A stretch of DNA of 64,000 bases, taken from NCBI GenBank assembly GCA_000165345.1, contig CM000432.1:256001-320000 (forward strand). Reading direction: 5' to 3'. How positions within the stretch are numbered: position 1 is the stretch's first letter; the number at the start of each line of letters is the position of its first letter. A model generated the notes under the pieces. That model made no database searches. It was given only the letters and a program-made list of their open reading frames with translations, and was not told the origin of the DNA. A program made the translations under genes and the position numbers. Positions 14,169 through 50,482 of this stretch are shown piece by piece.

Positions 14169-22476
<8,308 letters not shown>

Positions 22477-44412: not shown

Positions 44413-45342
44413 TCATTTGGGACAATTGGGAAAGATGAGTATATTAATAAGTTGAATCGTTTTTAAAAATGCTAAAGTTTCTTTTGGAATAATAGAATAT
44501 CTTGGAATAATGCAAATCAATTTTTTATCACTTGCATATTCAATACAATATCCAGAAGAAAGTTTATTATCTGAATCAATAAAAAATAATGATGTAATTT
44601 TTATTTCATTGGAATATTGAATAATCACTGGATTCAAAGTTAAGTTTTTATCAATTTCATCACTTATCTCAATATCATTATTCAAGCTAATATAATCATT
44701 AAATTTGGATATTGAATCAATTTTAGTAACATCTGGAGAATTTCTTGGATCAAGTATGTTAAGTTGAACACAACCAACTTTTGTTTTTGATTTTAAATCA
44801 TCTTTTAAAGAATAATTAATTATGTAACTATACCAGTCATTAAATTTGTTTAATGCAGAAGATGTAAAATATATTGGTACTCTAATTTTTGGCTCATAAA
44901 ATACTATTCCATCGTTTCCCACAGGTCTTTCATATTTTTGAACTTCTCTTGTTTCATCTATTCCATTAAAAGATGATTCATCCGAACCCATACAAAAAAT
45001 GGCATCCAATCTATTAATATTTGCAGGTATTGCATATTCTAGCATTGATATTCTAAATGTTGAGCCAATTTCAAAAAGAAATGTATCATGGCGTTCACTT
45101 TCAGAACTATTTAAATTACTAACTGGATTCTTAATTAAAATAGAAAATGGATTACGTACATTTTTATTCTTCATCTTAATTGACTCTTGACATATACCAC
45201 AAAATGGGTCGTTTCCTTTATTAACATTATCTATATTTTTAAATACATGCTCAAGATTTGGCGTACCTTGTTCGGTACCAGAACCTAAGAAAAGAATAAA
45301 GCTACTCATATCTCTTGTTGGCTTATGAGAATGTGCATGCAT
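44413..45342 (-). CDS. MBL-fold-like pseudoenzyme (paralog 2 of 42153..43217), metal-binding histidines lost
   Basis: MSSFILFLGSGTEQGTPN parallels paralog 1 KLPCGILFVGTGVSSSVP. FLFEIGSTFRISML...LDAIFCMGSDESSFNG aligns with ILIDLGKSFREAAI...IDSVILTHFHNDAVAG, so the HxHxDH position reads MGSDES. Two candidate ATGs (45342 or 45309). Confidence 0.6.
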   Translation of the reverse strand: MHAHSHKPTRDMSSFILFLGSGTEQGTPNLEHVFKNIDNVNKGNDPFCGICQESIKMKNKNVRNPFSILIKNPVSNLNSSESERHDTFLFEIGSTFRISMLEYAIPANINRLDAIFCMGSDESSFNGIDETREVQKYERPVGNDGIVFYEPKIRVPIYFTSSALNKFNDWYSYIINYSLKDDLKSKTKVGCVQLNILDPRNSPDVTKIDSISKFNDYISLNNDIEISDEIDKNLTLNPVIIQYSNEIKITSLFFIDSDNKLSSGYCIEYASDKKLICIIPRYSIIPKETLAFLKTIQLINILIFPNCPK

Positions 45343-45476: not shown

Positions 45477-45686
45477 TTACTATTTCAGTGAAAATTATAT
45501 TGCAGCAAAAGTAATATTCTCTAATTGACATATTTCAGAATTTATAATTTAATATTATACAAAAGTTGATAATTTAAGAATTTTCCGAGTGAAGTGGAGT
45601 TTTTGTTACACTCATTTAATAACTTAATAGCAATACAAAAATTCTTGGATCTTAAACAAGTAATTAGTGAGCATAACACATTTAAA

Positions 45687-46403
45687 ATGTCTAGGAAGAA
45701 AGAAAAATTGAATGCTGCAAAAACTAATTCCAGTCAGAATTTGCAATTATTAATAGTTTGGACGATATTCTTGGGTATTATTGTATTATTTTTCCACTTA
45801 ATTTATAAATATTTGATTAAAAACATATTTAATTATATATTAAATTTTATTAGTAAAAAAGATTCCAGCTTTAATGAAAATGCTAATAATATTAGCACTA
45901 ATAATAATAATCGAGATATCAATACTAGCTCAAGTGCATTTGATAGGGGTGAAATTGATGCAAATCTACAAAGTGGAAATTTTACTTCTGATAATTCAAT
46001 ATTTAGAGTTTCAATCGGATTTTGCTACAGTAAAGAAGCTGAGAATCTTAAGAAGCTAAAGGTAAAAGAGTCTCTGATCAAGCTTTCTGGTTTTACTGAT
46101 CTTTTTCTATTTATTCAGGTTGATACTGAGCAAGATGAACTGGTTATATTGAATTATATGCAAGAATTTGGAATATTTGAAGCTGGATTAAAGAAACATA
46201 GACTTGTTTTTTGTGAAAAACCTGAATCTATTCCAAATATGGCAAGACAACTACAAGCTAATATGCATATTGATACAAATCAAGATAATGCACAGAAACT
46301 TTTAAATAAGGTTCCAAATATTTCTATTCTAACTTTCGACGATGACGGAGATTCATTATATGAATTGGTTGAAACAATTGAAAATGTTGTAAACTCAAAA
46401 TAA
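45687..46403 (+). CDS. Hypothetical signal-anchored membrane protein (about 238 aa from first ATG)
   Basis: The track start at 45594 is GTG. The first ATG at 45687 gives MSRKKEKL...LLIVWTIFLGIIVLFFHLIYKYL (TM), then an Asn-rich linker and a C-terminal alpha/beta-like domain. An in-frame 57-nt GTAAAA...TTCAG segment (46063-46119) could be an optional intron. Confidence 0.45.
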   Translation: MSRKKEKLNAAKTNSSQNLQLLIVWTIFLGIIVLFFHLIYKYLIKNIFNYILNFISKKDSSFNENANNISTNNNNRDINTSSSAFDRGEIDANLQSGNFTSDNSIFRVSIGFCYSKEAENLKKLKVKESLIKLSGFTDLFLFIQVDTEQDELVILNYMQEFGIFEAGLKKHRLVFCEKPESIPNMARQLQANMHIDTNQDNAQKLLNKVPNISILTFDDDGDSLYELVETIENVVNSK

Positions 46404-46504: not shown

Positions 46505-48304
46505 TTAAAGCAATCTTTTATTTCTTCTAAAAAAGTAATGAATATAAAGACCAGACCCAACCAGTAAAAAAATGGATGTTTTATTATTTAATATAAAGCT
46601 TTTGCATACATTATAATATGATAAGAAGATTCTTGAAAATACATTTGAGATTTTGAAGTTATCATTAAACTTTTTTTGAATGGTAAATAATGAATTGGCA
46701 CTTAAATTTACTGCCTTTGTTGAATTATTACTATTATTAACAGGCTTTGTCATTGCTTCAAGCTCAGAATCTTCAATTTCAGATGAATTCATAAATAACT
46801 CATCATCAATAAAATCTTCATCAGAATTATCTTCATCATCAGAAACTTTTAATTGTTGATTTACATCTTCAATATTATAATTTTTTGCTTGTTTTAATGC
46901 AAGCTGACCACACGCACCGAAAATTCCATCCCCCATTTTTCTTCTAACAGTTACAAATATATTCAAATCAATAAGTACCTTGGCAAATTTGGTAATAATT
47001 TCTTTAGATGGAGTGGAAAAACGAGTACTTGTATTGGTTTTATTGTATGGAATGAGATTAACAATAGCAAAATTGGTTCTATTAAAGTCTTTAGATAATT
47101 CTTTAAAGATGGTACTCGCAATATGGCTTTTAAAGTTTTTATTAATTATTTTGTTATCAGACATATAATTAATATTCATTTTAACACTATCATCTCTATT
47201 GTCTATTATTTCCTCAATAATATTTTTTGAAATTGGAGTATTTTTCAGCAAATTTGCAAGTTCAACTGCATGATCTTCAGAGTCATTCACATCCTTAAGC
47301 ATTGTATATTCAATAATTATCATTTTATGTCCATATAATAATTTATTCGAGATTAAAATATCATCATAATTCATATTGTCTTTAATGTGATCTTTATTTC
47401 TATCATCTAATAAATTTTTATAACATTTATTAATTATCGTCTTGAAAATAAAAATATCCAAAGATCTCATTAAATCAGAAATTTTATATAATCTTGCAAT
47501 TGGAATAATTCTCTCTCTAAGTGATTGATTTGGTGCATGTAAGCTTAAACAAAGTCCAACTCCAGGTAAATCATCTGCAAGATTAATAATATTTGAAGGT
47601 ATACCAACAGTACTAACCAGAATATGTCCAGAAGATAACGAGAATATTCTAGGGTCAACCATTAATCTAATTGAATCAATAACTTCATCATAATTTTCCA
47701 ACGGTTCTCCCATTCCCATAAAAACAACATTTCTCACAGGTTCTTTGAGTATATTTTTTATATAATATAATTGCTGTAAAATTTCTCCTGATAAAAGTGA
47801 ACCTCTAAGACCCATAGATCCTGTTGCACAAAACATACAACCCATTCTACATCCAATTTGCGATGATACACATATTGAGATTCTCTTATACTTGGATGAA
47901 GTACTTATTTCTTGTTGATTACTATCATTGTTTTTATTATTACTATTACTGTTACAAATGTTTGTATTTTCATTAACCTGATCATCACCGTATCTCATAA
48001 TTACAGCTTCAATTTCATGAGAATCTTGTAATCTGAAGATAATTTTGGTTGTATTACCATCTTTGGATGTTTGTGAATTAATTAATTGTATATTTAAGAT
48101 AGAAAATTGTTCATTTATAATTTTATAGGCAGCTTTTGGTATATCCTTAATTTCTGACATATTCTTAATGCCTTTTTGTACAATATTCCTCCAAATTGTA
48201 TATGCATGAATTCTTTTGACACCTGCATCGTCTAATGCTTTTGTAAGAGACTTATAATCAAAAATTGAATGTTTTTTTATATCTGTTCTTCTCTTATTCT
48301 CCAT
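46505..48304 (-). CDS. RlmN/Cfr-family radical SAM RNA methyltransferase homolog with long insertions and a hydrophobic C-terminal tail
   Basis: N-terminal RlmN domain (KRIHAYTIWRNIVQKGIKNMSEIKDIP...SKDGNTTKIIFRLQDSHEIEAVIM). Radical SAM cluster ISICVSSQIGCRMGCMFCATGSMGLRGSLLSGEILQQ (CxxxCxxC). VFMGMGEPLENYDEV, LSSGHILVSTVGIP and LCLSLHAPNQSLRERIIPIARLY are all collinear with bacterial RlmN/Cfr. Long Asn-rich insertions. C-terminal TSIFLLVGSGLYIHYFF hydrophobic segment. Confidence 0.8.
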   Translation of the reverse strand: MENKRRTDIKKHSIFDYKSLTKALDDAGVKRIHAYTIWRNIVQKGIKNMSEIKDIPKAAYKIINEQFSILNIQLINSQTSKDGNTTKIIFRLQDSHEIEAVIMRYGDDQVNENTNICNSNSNNKNNDSNQQEISTSSKYKRISICVSSQIGCRMGCMFCATGSMGLRGSLLSGEILQQLYYIKNILKEPVRNVVFMGMGEPLENYDEVIDSIRLMVDPRIFSLSSGHILVSTVGIPSNIINLADDLPGVGLCLSLHAPNQSLRERIIPIARLYKISDLMRSLDIFIFKTIINKCYKNLLDDRNKDHIKDNMNYDDILISNKLLYGHKMIIIEYTMLKDVNDSEDHAVELANLLKNTPISKNIIEEIIDNRDDSVKMNINYMSDNKIINKNFKSHIASTIFKELSKDFNRTNFAIVNLIPYNKTNTSTRFSTPSKEIITKFAKVLIDLNIFVTVRRKMGDGIFGACGQLALKQAKNYNIEDVNQQLKVSDDEDNSDEDFIDDELFMNSSEIEDSELEAMTKPVNNSNNSTKAVNLSANSLFTIQKKFNDNFKISNVFSRIFLSYYNVCKSFILNNKTSIFLLVGSGLYIHYFFRRNKRLL

Positions 48305-48581
48305 GATTATTAATTATTGATAATCACATGAATTAAGTTTGATTTAATTAATATTATTGGTTTGACAAGTCTTATTTTTTTCTTATAATTGGAAAAAAGT
48401 CTTAATAAATTCTCAGTTTAAAGAATGAAGAGGATAAATACTTGATACTTGTTACCTAATTTAAAATAATATTACTAACTTATTAGAGTTAGAAAAAGAA
48501 ATTGATTAGGTTGCAGCTAAAATTTGTACCTTTTTCTAATTAATAATCAATTCTAAATATAATCAAAAAATAAGAAATGCA

Positions 48582-48600
48582 CCTGGCGCTGGCGCCAGAG
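48582..48600. promoter_or_regulatory. E2F-like direct repeat CCTGGCGCTGGCGCCAGAG
   Basis: RlmN / RPT2 divergent promoter. Further sites are TATGCGCGCCAAATG (48810-48824) and GAGGGGGCGGGCAAATTTT (48855-48873). Confidence 0.45.
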
Positions 48601-49144
48601 CTATGAATACCAATATATTTACTATATTAAACTTGACTATAGATATTTTCAGCTTTGCTATTTACATGAAAGCACCTATTATTAATATTTAAGAACAAAG
48701 AAACTTTCAAAGTTCCAAAAAATTTATTTGATTATCTTTTTAATATTTTTTCATGCAATAATTATTAATAATAGTGATTGTTTAGGGCTTTTTAAAATTT
48801 AAGAGCAATTATGCGCGCCAAATGTTTGATCCATTAAATTATTGGGTATAAGAATGAGGGGGCGGGCAAATTTTAAGGGGGTATATTATATAAATAATTT
48901 ATTGGGGCAAAAGTAATAATAATAAATAAATGCGTTAAATTTTAACTGTATTGTTATAATAGCATTAATAAAGTACAAGAAGATTTCTAAGGTACAAATT
49001 TCAATAAGGTAATAATTTTGAGGAGAAGAGTAATAAAAGGAATCTTTTGGAGAGACTGGCAATTCAAATTAAGGCAGATTTGAATATAATACACACACAA
49101 TAAAATATATGCTCAAGTAAGGTAAAGGTAGGTTAGAGAAAAGT

Positions 49145-50482
49145 ATGGGAAATTCACATGGTGTACTTGGGGAGGGGGGGATGAAAAATAATAGGAAGTC
49201 AAAGAACAATGGTAAAGATGAGAAAAAGAAATTAGAATCCGCCCCACCTCCAATGGAAATGAAAAGGAAAAGAAAGCAAAAAGGCCCACCACAATATGCT
49301 AGATTGCCGGCAGTAGTTCCAAATGCCAAATGTAGACTAAGATTATTAAAGTATGAGAGAATTAAAGACTATTTAATGATGGAACAAGAATTTATTACAA
49401 GTATGGAAAGTGTAAAGCCATCAGCAGAGACAGCAGAAGAAGAACACAATAAAGTGGATGATTTAAGAGGGTCACCAATGAATATTGGAACTTTAGAGGA
49501 AATTATAGATGAGAATCATGCAATAGTTTCATCATCAGTAGGGTCTGAGTATTATGTAAATATTTTATCGTTTGTAGACAAGAACCAACTTGAACCTGGA
49601 AGTTCAGTATTATTACATAATAAAGTATATTCTGTTGTTGGAATAATGAATGATGAGGTGGATCCTTTAGTTTCTGTAATGAAAGTTGATAAAGCTCCTT
49701 TGGAAAGCTATGCAGATATTGGTGGTTTAGAACAGCAGATCCAAGAAATAAAGGAGGCTGTAGAAATTCCTTTAACACATCCTGAATTATATGATGACAT
49801 TGGTATTAAACCTCCAAAAGGAGTAATTTTGTATGGTCCTCCAGGAACTGGTAAAACTCTTTTAGCTAAAGCTGTTGCAAATGAAACTTCAGCAACCTTT
49901 TTAAGGGTAGTTGGAAGTGAACTAATTCAAAAGTATTTAGGAGATGGACCAAAACTTGTACGTGAGTTATTCAGAGTTGCTGAGGAAAATGCTCCAAGTA
50001 TTGTTTTTATTGATGAAATTGATGCTGTTGGTACTAAGAGACATGACTCTCAAAGTGGAGGTGAGAGAGATATTCAAAGAACTATGCTTGAATTACTTAA
50101 TCAATTGGATGGATTTGAGGCAAGAGGGGATGTTAAAGTTATTATGGCAACTAATAAAATTGAAAGTCTAGATCCAGCTCTTATTAGACCTGGAAGAATT
50201 GATAGAAAGATTGAACTTCCCAATCCAGACTGTAAAACTAAAAGAAGAATCTTTCAAATTCACACAAGCAAAATGACTCTATCTGATGATGTTGACTTGG
50301 AGGAATTTATTATGGCAAAAGATGATATTAGTGGGGCAGATATTAAAGCAATTTGTACCGAAGCTGGTCTTCTGGCTCTTAGAGAAAGAAGGATGAGAGT
50401 TACACAAGAAGATCTCAGGAAAGCTAAAGAAAAGGCTTTATATAGAAAGAAGGGTGGAATACCTGAAGGCTTATATCTCTAG
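49145..50482 (+). CDS. RPT2: 26S proteasome regulatory subunit 4 (RPT2/PSMC1)
   Basis: N-terminal MGNSHG (Gly2 myristoylation context, as in MGQSQS of PSMC1). [97 protein letters not shown]-terminal PEGLYL* is identical to human PSMC1. Confidence 0.95.

Follow-up and report, generated by a model that had tools for sequence, protein, structure and literature searches.

What would an RlmN-like methyltransferase do in a parasite whose organelles do not translate? Cryptosporidium is known to have neither organellar rRNA or tRNA nor an organellar genome or translation, and the presence of an RlmN-like gene in such an organism raises the questions of where the gene came from, which RNA its product acts on and where in the cell it does so. 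The gene lies in a 64,000-nucleotide stretch of DNA (the window), as an intron-less open reading frame with an ATG start; in the other frames, no ORF of at least 80 aa competes with it. Its 599-aa product is an exact match to Cryptosporidium parvum QOY42006.1/WKS77309.1, from a ~1.1-Mb chromosome, and the adjoining gene (49145-50482) encodes the 26S proteasome S4/Rpt2 subunit. The original prediction of a nuclear apicomplexan, Cryptosporidium-like context was therefore right. The gene is already known and annotated (QOY42006.1/CPATCC_001600, of the XP_625713 family, reads “RlmN/Cfr with Radical SAM domain”) and is an ordinary finding given its studied relatives in Toxoplasma and Arabidopsis. 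A literature search for papers on the Cryptosporidium RlmN-like protein found none. The features discussed below are collected in Table 1.

Table 1 Features of the RlmN-like gene and the adjoining intergenic region. Positions are those of the window; aa, residues of the C. parvum protein.
Feature	Position	Strand	Basis or location
RlmN-like radical-SAM methyltransferase CDS, complete, single-exon, 599 aa + stop	46505..48304	-	ORF, database match
N-terminal RlmN accessory (RNA-binding) domain, aa 13-105	47990..48268	-	TIGR00048 from residue 13/profile position 8; pLDDT >90; aligned to Cfr/RlmN N-terminal domains
Insertion 1, variable Asn-rich disordered loop, aa 109-136	47897..47980	-	pLDDT <50; 31-35% conserved in genus
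Cys145 (in CVSSQ), equivalent to E. coli RlmN C118, resolves protein-RNA crosslink	47870..47872	-	alignments; roles from PMC10838301
CRMGCMFC, aa 152-159, CxxxCxxC binding [4Fe-4S] cluster	47828..47851	-	invariant in both alignments, PDB matches
MGMGE motif, aa 196-200	47705..47719	-	alignments; role from PMC10838301
Insertion 2, Cryptosporidium-specific helical extension, aa 292-324, 76% conserved in genus	47333..47431	-	alignment, model, cross-taxa comparison
Insertion 3, Cryptosporidium-specific, aa 357-411: variable disordered part, then conserved long helix aa 382-406	47072..47236	-	alignment, model, cross-taxa comparison
GACGQL, aa 463-468, Cys465 = E. coli C355/RLMNL3 C345, methyl-carrying cysteine	46901..46918	-	alignments, PDB matches
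Disordered, partly acidic C-terminal linker (catalytic domain to membrane region), aa 476-557	46634..46879	-	pLDDT <50; 53% conservation
Predicted juxtamembrane hydrophobic/amphipathic helix, aa 553-573	46586..46648	-	model helix 553-573; tail alignment
Predicted tail-anchor transmembrane segment TSIFLLVGSGLYIHYFF, aa 576-592	46529..46579	-	hydropathy, genus alignment, model
Basic C-terminal flank RRNKRLL, aa 593-599, 4 K/R	46508..46528	-	sequence
Divergent intergenic region shared by RlmN-like gene and Rpt2 proteasome ATPase gene	48305..49144	.	motif search; motif definitions PMC3734150
E2F-like site TGGCGCCA	48590-48597		intergenic region 48305..49144
E2F-like site GCGCGCCAAA	48813-48822		intergenic region 48305..49144
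E2F-like site GGCGGGCAAA	48861-48870		intergenic region 48305..49144

Judged by its sequence and modelled structure, the protein is a radical-SAM enzyme of the RlmN/Cfr family and has the complete architecture of that family. The collinearity with RlmN/Cfr that had been noticed at the outset was borne out by matches to the NCBIfam RlmN profile TIGR00048 (264.8 bits, E 1e-78), to Pfam Radical_SAM PF04055 (residues 148-269; 34 bits vs a cut-off of 29.5) and, by sequence, to RlmN and Cfr in the PDB (E 1e-36 to 1e-41). In the AlphaFold model the core, N-terminal domain included, has a pLDDT above 90, and Foldseek matched this model to the RlmN structures 6fz6, 3rfa and 5hr7 (tRNA complex) with E values of 1e-28 to 6e-30 and a target-normalised TM of 0.83-0.89, in agreement with the overall fold of the family, an N-terminal accessory domain joined to a partial TIM barrel. 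The TIGR00048 score does not reach the curated equivalog cut-off of 290 because the insertions split the match into three stretches. Since this cut-off is tuned for bacterial equivalogs, the low score speaks against a “bacterial RlmN equivalog” and not against family membership. Loss of the SAM-binding residues on careful alignment had been named as grounds for abandoning the assignment; instead, CRMGCMFC (152-159), MGMGE, C145 and C465 are all retained. Both cysteines align to RlmN and Cfr in the PDB matches, and 40 aligned members of the eukaryotic clade described below all retain C145, while no fewer than 90% of them retain C465. Across Cryptosporidium, conservation is 81-90% in the core vs 31-53% in the linkers, a difference that suggests purifying selection on an active enzyme.

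The enzyme had been described as bacterial-type and possibly derived by horizontal gene transfer (HGT), with a new role. Our neighbour-joining tree (Kimura distances, 65 sequences, 339 columns, 200 bootstraps) was rooted on Cfr by choice, and of its 26 bacterial RlmN sequences two were references and 24 had been selected among the 80 loci that a genome scan ranked as most similar. In this tree, from which the organellar eukaryotic RlmN clades (RLMNL1, RLMNL2 (I, II) and IV-VI) were left out, the eukaryotic sequences were monophyletic with 89% bootstrap support, apart from the bacterial RlmN, Cfr and Cfr(C). The eukaryote-only clade contains Cryptosporidium, Toxoplasma TgRlmN, gregarines, chromerids, oomycetes, chytrids, choanoflagellates and the plant RLMNL3 orthologues; the branching inside it is not resolved, and Cryptosporidium does not group with other apicomplexans. 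The sister sequences P0050 and P0081 both come from one very fragmented assembly, GCA_013565615.1. Cfr and Cfr(C) lie on one side of a split with 100% support, and every RlmN-type sequence, that of Cryptosporidium included, lies on the other. Group HMMs built from our own alignment groups gave the C. parvum protein 468 bits for the eukaryote clade, 378 for the plant RLMNL3-type, 334 for bacterial RlmN and 185 for Cfr, and its identity to other eukaryotes (37.5-47.3%) is higher than that to the closest bacteria (32.7-38.7%). Among the best 120 database matches, the 109 non-Cryptosporidium entries, apicomplexans and chromerids included, bear eukaryotic names or none, and no entry bears a bacterial name. 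The placement agrees with “clade III” of the RlmN-like enzymes, which is described as having no close prokaryotic relatives (PMC10838301). The sequence comparisons are best explained if the C. parvum gene is the Cryptosporidium orthologue of these eukaryote-specific enzymes, to which RLMNL3 and TgRlmN belong.

A recent transfer of a bacterial rlmN or cfr into Cryptosporidium, followed by a new role, is by the same comparisons exceedingly improbable. The family is ancestrally bacterial, the PDB and NCBIfam matches are all bacterial proteins, and complex origins, including HGT, have been noted for the eukaryotic RlmN-like clades (PMC10838301). The tree, the identities and the group HMMs nevertheless led us to reject recent bacterial HGT, and the names of the best matches also argue against it. 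So do the tail-anchor architecture, common to TgRlmN and many protist and chytrid orthologues, and the orthologues found in every Cryptosporidium species examined, C. muris included.

Alignment and cross-taxa comparison confirmed the predicted insertions: three are internal (111-126, in the disordered loop 109-136, 292-324 and 357-411), and the C-terminus is extended by ~130 aa. The loop at the first insertion differs in length from one member of the eukaryotic clade to the next and is much longer in Toxoplasma. The helical insertions 2 and 3, kept across the genus, probably form a surface particular to this lineage, to which RNA or a partner protein might bind.

The sequence of the C-terminus supports a predicted membrane anchor with tail-anchor topology. 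The hydrophobic tail pointed out earlier is indeed present: TSIFLLVGSGLYIHYFF (576-592) is followed by RRNKRLL, and the AlphaFold model places a helix (575-596) over this segment. All 10 Cryptosporidium species examined, and most members of the clade, share this architecture of transmembrane segment (TMD) plus basic flank. The single TMD lies no more than ~30 residues from the C-terminus, and no N-terminal signal is apparent: the RlmN domain begins at about residue 13, too early to leave space for a signal or transit peptide, and the N-terminus is hydrophilic, in keeping with a cytosolic domain. The apparent absence of a targeting peptide, together with the one flanked C-terminal TMD, would give the protein its tail-anchor topology. 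Hydrophobicity of the tail is moderate (KD17 of 1.42 vs 2.0-2.7 in most relatives), and membrane insertion and the target membrane are therefore uncertain.

Tail anchors were also found in clade members from alveolates, stramenopiles, Rhizaria, chytrids, aphelids and choanoflagellates, and in one “Clim_” sequence, which we take to be from Corallochytrium. The plant and green-algal members are ~370-410 aa long, end 18-36 residues past GACGQL and have no TMD, and are therefore expected to be soluble. Contrary to published statements, the tail anchor thus occurs far beyond myzozoans. We tentatively suggest, as a possibility rather than a probability, that the anchor is ancestral in eukaryotes and not a myzozoan or “chromalveolate” invention, that it was lost in the green lineage, and that it serves a role other than tRNA import, most plausibly [4Fe-4S] hand-over at the mitosome surface.

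The divergent E2F-like promoter attributed to the gene was only partly upheld: the motifs are present in the intergenic region shared with Rpt2, but they are a generic C. parvum promoter element and not a special feature of the RlmN-like gene. Within the 64-kb window TGGCGCCA was observed 9 times vs 0.02 expected, and the E2F-like motif recurs in many intergenic regions. [quoted passage not shown] With such enrichment across the window and the genome, a gene-specific E2F-like promoter was rejected.

Our combined findings suggest that the C. parvum protein is probably a cytosol-facing, tail-anchored tRNA A37 C2-methyltransferase, likely on the surface of the mitosome or the ER, with both activity and location deduced from sequence and from its relatives. 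The established knowledge of the genus supports the earlier view that Cryptosporidium has no organellar rRNA substrate; without organellar rRNA or tRNA, a cytosolic RNA target is implied. The apparent paradox of an RlmN without organelle ribosomes has, however, already been resolved elsewhere. Arabidopsis RLMNL3 (At3g19630), of “clade III”, is a cytosolic tRNA m2A37 methyltransferase (PMC10838301), and in Toxoplasma a tail anchor holds TgRlmN in the outer mitochondrial membrane, the catalytic domain facing the cytosol and the TMD being required for this location (PMC5749711, Padgett et al. 2017/2018). Since the membrane-tethered RlmN is eukaryote-wide and most likely a cytosolic-tRNA enzyme, its presence in C. 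parvum is expected and not paradoxical.

By sequence and model, C152, C156 and C159 would hold the SAM-binding [4Fe-4S] cluster, with C465 as methyl carrier, C145 as resolver and an intact accessory domain. If the established chemistry of E. coli RlmN applies, a first SAM would methylate C465, and a second would be cleaved to a 5'-deoxyadenosyl radical that activates the C465 methyl group. The methyl would then pass to C2 of adenosine via a covalent enzyme-RNA intermediate, which C145 would resolve to give m2A. Orthology to RLMNL3 and the lack of organellar RNA in Cryptosporidium point to cytosolic tRNAs with A37 as the substrates, and m2A37 may tune the decoding of matching codons. We searched the window for tRNA genes as candidate RlmN substrates and found none. 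A literature search turned up no report of m2A in apicomplexan tRNA and no data on tRNA modification in C. parvum; the panel of a Toxoplasma LC-MS survey does not contain m2A, and a P. falciparum review is silent on it. By analogy with TgRlmN, the protein would be inserted post-translationally with its catalytic domain in the cytosol, most likely into the mitosome outer membrane or alternatively into the ER. At the mitosome, the enzyme would adjoin the Fe-S export/CIA machinery, on which the loading of its cluster depends; myzozoan CIA components are located at the mitochondrial outer membrane.

Other functions can be envisaged for the same protein. The enzyme might methylate cytosolic large-subunit rRNA, at the equivalent of A2503 in 28S, instead of or besides tRNA: bacterial RlmN is dual-specific for C2 methylation of 23S rRNA A2503 and tRNA A37 (PMC10838301), the peptidyl-transferase-centre region is highly conserved, and the genus-specific insertions could alter substrate choice. 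We consider this unlikely, as in plants, which have the orthologous RLMNL3, m2A is undetected in 25S/18S rRNA and loss of RLMNL3 removes >98% of cytosolic tRNA m2A (PMC10838301), and a membrane-tethered enzyme would be poorly placed for nucleolar pre-ribosomes. There is a similarly small chance that the catalytic scaffold has been repurposed, either as an RNA-binding or Fe-S-handling protein that sits on the mitosome surface and does not methylate, or as an enzyme with a non-RNA substrate. The large genus-specific insertions, two of them conserved, would fit such a role, as would the score below the RlmN equivalog cut-off, and no apicomplexan member, TgRlmN included, has demonstrated activity. 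Yet the sub-threshold score is explained by the insertion-split match, the residues for two-SAM ping-pong methylation are conserved, and the RNA-binding domain at the N-terminus is both conserved and modelled with high confidence.

Anchoring at the organelle surface could alternatively serve to modify tRNAs bound for mitochondrial import, as Padgett et al. hypothesized for TgRlmN given that tRNA genes are missing from the apicomplexan mitochondrial genome (PMC5749711). With neither an organellar genome nor organellar translation, Cryptosporidium does not have to import tRNAs; nevertheless, every species has kept the enzyme together with its catalytic residues and tail anchor, which counts against this explanation for TgRlmN as well. 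Chytrids, choanoflagellates and oomycetes have the same anchor, and in these groups the mitochondrial genome generally carries tRNA genes of its own. An import role is thus very improbable, and Cryptosporidium, which retains the anchored enzyme but has no organellar translation, provides a natural test case.

Reading the C. parvum protein as a cytosolic tRNA methyltransferase joins two bodies of work between which there is no cross-citation, that on the apicomplexan tail-anchored RlmN and that on plant RLMNL3 and cytosolic tRNA m2A37, and the link to RLMNL3 gives the apicomplexan RlmN enzymes a concrete, testable function. In HeLa RNA no m2A was found (PMC10838301). A radical-SAM [4Fe-4S] enzyme that probably modifies tRNA, is absent from humans and would be a client of the mitosome-dependent Fe-S pathway is a conceivable parasite-specific target. 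If the anchor does serve [4Fe-4S] hand-over at the mitosome surface, CpRlmN would be a cytosolic client that helps to explain why the Fe-S machinery of the mitosome has been retained.

Cfr is a 23S rRNA A2503 C8-methyltransferase that confers antibiotic resistance; it shares superfamily and fold with the C. parvum protein, and PDB 9P0P is the best single sequence match (E 4.5e-41). However, the Cfr models score far below their cut-offs (TIGR04432, 196 vs 550; NF000424, 208 vs 530) and our own Cfr HMM far below that of the eukaryote clade, and these scores and the tree position led us to reject a C8 methylase of the Cfr type. Bacterial RlmN (E. coli, PDB 3RFA and 5HR7) has the same fold (target-normalised TM of 0.83-0.87 for the C. 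parvum model against E. coli RlmN chains), arranges its domains in the same order and shares the cluster motif, both cysteines and MGMGE, but is only 33-39% identical and belongs to a separate clade. Bacterial RlmN enzymes are soluble, 340-390 aa long and also act on rRNA, whereas Cryptosporidium has no bacterial-type rRNA substrate.

Plant RLMNL3 shares with the Cryptosporidium protein its clade in the tree, a score of 378 bits on the plant-only HMM, the apparent lack of an organellar targeting peptide and an expected substrate class of cytosolic tRNA. The catalytic set is identical, with C. parvum C145/C465 corresponding to RLMNL3 C118/C345, both of which the plant members carry as published (PMC10838301). 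The plant proteins differ in lacking the TMD, the Cryptosporidium protein having a 131-residue tail-anchored extension and the insertions. For TgRlmN we took P0198, in which CxxxCxxC at 225-232 agrees with the published C229/232S mutant (PMC5749711) and which the tree places with Cryptosporidium in the clade supported at 89%, in line with orthology. It differs from the C. parvum protein in the TMD (KD17 of 2.11 in Toxoplasma vs 1.42), in lacking the conserved helical insertions 292-324 and 357-411, and in an acidic loop of ~90 residues where the C. parvum protein has insertion 1; in addition, the organelle that would carry the protein in Cryptosporidium is a mitosome without a genome. Nonetheless, the two proteins are 41.5% identical over the 339 trimmed core columns, and both combine the apparent absence of a presequence, a variable loop ahead of the first core strand, an RlmN core, a long disordered C-terminal linker and a single C-terminal TMD with a basic flank.

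Over 46505-48304 no rival open reading frame (ORF) of at least 80 aa was found on other frames, and the RlmN-like ORF proved genuine. Its product, CpRlmN, is identical to the C. parvum protein QOY42006.1/WKS77309.1 (CPATCC_001600). The same 90% cluster contains XP_625713, annotated as a "conserved protein with transmembrane region at C-terminus", together with C. hominis and C. tyzzeri proteins named [quoted passage not shown]. Public annotation already includes the gene, the family to which it is assigned and the C-terminal transmembrane segment (TMD). This identity, the cluster and the Rpt2 neighbor place the window on a C. parvum chromosome of ~1.1 Mb (GC 24-30% around the gene), and the guess of a Cryptosporidium-like genome was therefore correct. 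Downstream lie ORFs at 44413-45342 (-; 309 aa) and 45594-46403 (+; 269 aa), the latter with a predicted hydrophobic segment, LLIVWTIFLGIIVLFFHLIY, close to its N-terminus. At 16-22 kb the window is very AT-rich (18-21% GC), and the GC skew there is strongly positive, reaching +0.49. In this stretch two long adjoining ORFs of 1862 and 915 aa (14169-22476, +), in different frames, share 29 nt and may represent a single very large gene of low complexity, or a frameshift.

The original prediction also gave this gene an E2F-like promoter. The motifs are genuine, but uninformative about the CpRlmN gene specifically, and the 840-bp intergenic region is common to this gene and Rpt2. The window holds 9 copies of the palindromic octamer TGGCGCCA (2901, 6827, 11343, 11359, 24937, 48590, 50870, 61545 and 63849) versus 0.02 expected, and 12 of TTTSGCGC versus 0.34 expected. 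At least some octamers (48590, 50870) lie between long ORFs, and the 11343/11359 pair is 16 bp apart. E2F-like motifs are the commonest found upstream of C. parvum genes and are enriched in 163 of 200 expression clusters (2,379 genes; Oberstaller et al., PMC3734150), and this window-wide and genome-wide abundance led us to reject a special promoter.

Collinearity with RlmN/Cfr was borne out by sequence, fold and catalytic residues. Pfam returned the generic Radical_SAM domain and nothing more specific. The NCBIfam RlmN model TIGR00048 matched in three stretches (E 1e-78) with 264.8 bits, below its curated equivalog cut-off of 290, and the Cfr models scored lower (196-208 bits; cut-offs 530-550). 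PDB sequence matches, in four collinear blocks, were Cfr 9P0P and RlmN 6FZ6, 3RF9 and 5HR6. An AlphaFold2 model built from a 40-sequence alignment (mean pLDDT 77.6; 296 residues at 90 or above) matched RlmN structures in Foldseek with E 1e-28 to 6e-30 and target-normalized TM of 0.83-0.89, including the tRNA-crosslinked complex 5HR7, versus 7e-21 for Cfr. C145 and C465 correspond to E. coli C118 and C355, the cluster cysteines are C152/C156/C159, and MGMGE lies at aa 196-200. This catalytic set is complete, SAM-binding residues included, so the loss envisaged in the original prediction did not materialize. C145, the cluster and MGMGE are invariant in 40 clade members and C465, within GACGQL, is conserved in at least 90% of them. 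Conservation of the protein is consistent with purifying selection.

Comparison with bacterial RlmN and with orthologues from plants recovered both the predicted insertions and the predicted membrane anchor. Toxoplasma carries ~90 residues at the site of the Asn-rich loop. Insertion 2 is found only in Cryptosporidium (76% conservation over ten species), and in insertion 3 a variable, disordered first half accompanies a conserved long helix (aa 382-406). The RlmN domain starts at about residue 13, leaving no space for a presequence or signal peptide, and basic RRNKRLL follows the TMD; the predicted topology is that of a tail anchor. Hydrophobicity of the TMD (KD17 score) is moderate in the C. 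parvum group (1.42) and stronger in C. muris (2.04). Among homologues P0012-P0219, a C-terminal TMD with basic flank was also found in oomycetes, a brown alga, Rhizaria (Norrisiella, Ammonia), many chytrids, the aphelid Amoeboaphelidium and choanoflagellates, and was absent from all green-lineage members and from Basidiobolus. It was likewise found in one "Clim_"-tagged sequence, presumably Corallochytrium. Published claims, in sources including PMC5749711, limit the TMD to Apicomplexa and select chromalveolates or consider it early myzozoan in origin. The predicted anchors in oomycetes, chytrids, Rhizaria, choanoflagellates and others contradict these limits, and a possibly ancient tail anchor is a modest side result.

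Features of the CpRlmN gene, its product and its upstream region (window nucleotides unless aa is stated)
Feature	Position	Strand	Remarks
CpRlmN ORF	46505-48304	-	599 codons, ATG start
26S proteasome S4/Rpt2 ATPase gene	49145-50482		divergent neighbor
E2F-like motif TGGCGCCA	48590-48597		840-bp divergent intergenic region
E2F-like motif GCGCGCCAAA	48813-48822		840-bp divergent intergenic region
E2F-like motif GGCGGGCAAA	48861-48870		840-bp divergent intergenic region
Asn-rich loop	aa 109-136		disordered; length-variable across whole clade
Insertion 2	aa 292-324		33 residues; modeled as helical extension
Insertion 3	aa 357-411		55 residues; genus-specific
C-terminal extension			131 residues; linker, helix, TMD, basic end
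C-terminal linker	aa 476-557		disordered, partly acidic
Hydrophobic or amphipathic helix	aa 553-573
Terminal TMD TSIFLLVGSGLYIHYFF	aa 576-592
TMD + basic flank, C. parvum copy	46508-46579

Among the best 120 database matches, all 109 outside Cryptosporidium were named eukaryotic proteins or unnamed entries, with no bacterial name among them. They included choanoflagellates (Barroeca, Hartaetosiga, Salpingoeca), chytrids, oomycetes, land plants (~372 aa), Vitrella, Chromera and the gregarine Porospora, and an alveolate-sequence profile added Toxoplasma, Besnoitia, Cardiosporidium and Lankesteria. The T. gondii homologue P0198 is TgRlmN, since its CxxxCxxC at 225-232 fits the published C229/232S mutant. 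In the Brassicaceae homologue P0097 the cysteines fall at 118 and 345, as numbered in the literature for Arabidopsis RLMNL3 (PMC10838301). From 185,579 prokaryotic genomes, scanned with the most conserved peptide patterns as probes, we retained the 80 loci nearest to the eukaryotic profile (identity 32-43%) and added RlmN of Klebsiella and Bacillus, Cfr and Cfr(C). In a neighbor-joining (distance) tree of 65 sequences, with eukaryotic clades I, II and IV-VI left out (339 trimmed columns, 200 bootstraps), all 37 eukaryotic sequences formed a single clade (89%) apart from all bacterial RlmN and Cfr. Cryptosporidium was monophyletic (100%), with no resolution of branching order within the eukaryotic clade; its pairing with two AT-rich sequences of GCA_013565615.1 (84%) may be long-branch attraction. 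On trimmed columns, C. parvum shared 37.5-47.3% identity with other eukaryotes and 32.7-38.7% with the closest bacteria. HMMs that we built from the alignment groups scored CpRlmN at 468 bits for eukaryotes without Cryptosporidium, 378 for green-lineage RLMNL3-type proteins (n=7), 334 for bacteria and 185 for Cfr. The eukaryotic clade corresponds to what Duan et al. (PMC10838301) call clade III, a group that by their account lacks close prokaryotic relatives and occurs in green plants, heterokonts and chytrids. Thus the clade, identities, HMM scores and clade III match do not support recent bacterial transfer into Cryptosporidium, an improbable account, and the "bacterial-type" origin originally predicted was not upheld. 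If the family did enter eukaryotes by transfer, this would have been very early.

The two GCA_013565615.1 loci (L085 4001-5557, L086 4001-5548; JACCDO010013604.1, JACCDO012238953.1) are tail-anchored RlmN-like genes on gene-dense ~23-kb contigs of a very fragmented assembly; both are AT-rich and intron-less, and they are closely related to each other. A TrmB-like (PF02390) methyltransferase gene adjoins each, and their source may be a parasite or contaminant within a host assembly. Many chytrid and JGI orthologues carry the source-record name "sorting nexin" or "sorting nexin-8" (P0034, P0071, P0143, P0146, P0163, P0165, P0168, P0172-P0176, P0098, P0130). The name appears to be an annotation error that has propagated, and fused gene models, the 832-aa and 859-aa entries among them, may have been its origin. 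In the oomycete orthologue P0055 (Phytophthora kernoviae, 775 aa), sterile-alpha-motif domains (PF00536/PF07647) are joined to the RlmN-like core, by either domain fusion or gene-model merge.

Our combined findings suggest that CpRlmN is, quite probably, a cytosol-facing, tail-anchored tRNA A37 C2-methylase. Anchored by its tail with the catalytic domain towards the cytosol, it would methylate some cytosolic tRNAs at C2 of A37, using the canonical two-SAM, methyl-cysteine radical mechanism, and its [4Fe-4S] cluster would come from a mitosome-dependent CIA route. Cryptosporidium is not known to have organellar RNA or organellar translation. Together with RLMNL3 orthology, the lack of organellar RNA argues for the cytosolic tRNA target raised in the original prediction. 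Arabidopsis RLMNL3 is a cytosolic tRNA m2A37 methyltransferase (PMC10838301). Orientation and likely membrane (mitosome or ER) are suggested by TgRlmN, which is tail-anchored in the outer mitochondrial membrane, its catalytic domain lying in the cytosol, and which was mislocalized without its TMD and toxic on overexpression only with cluster motif and TMD both intact (Padgett et al., PMC5749711). Later work sees RlmN as a cytosol-facing Fe-S client, locates the CIA machinery at the surface of the myzozoan mitochondrion and records that Cryptosporidium has kept the ABCB7-like exporter.

Other functions appear less probable. A scaffold repurposed for another role sits poorly with the complete catalytic inventory. 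Anchoring for tRNA import is disfavored because Cryptosporidium keeps the anchored enzyme without organellar translation. The import idea draws on a proposal of Padgett et al. (PMC5749711) that the outer-membrane location might serve mitochondrial tRNA import. Action on rRNA is made less attractive by plants, in which m2A is undetectable in 25S and 18S rRNA, as also in HeLa RNA (PMC10838301).

Our literature search found no paper on the Cryptosporidium RlmN-like protein and no m2A assays on apicomplexan tRNA. Apicomplexans and TMDs go unmentioned in the plant paper (PMC10838301), and no mention of RLMNL3 was found in the available RlmN passages of the Toxoplasma papers. Proteins of this kind have already been characterized in Toxoplasma and Arabidopsis. 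Phylogenetically, the tail-anchored apicomplexan RlmN and plant RLMNL3 fall within one clade, which thus predicts a specific activity for the apicomplexan proteins.
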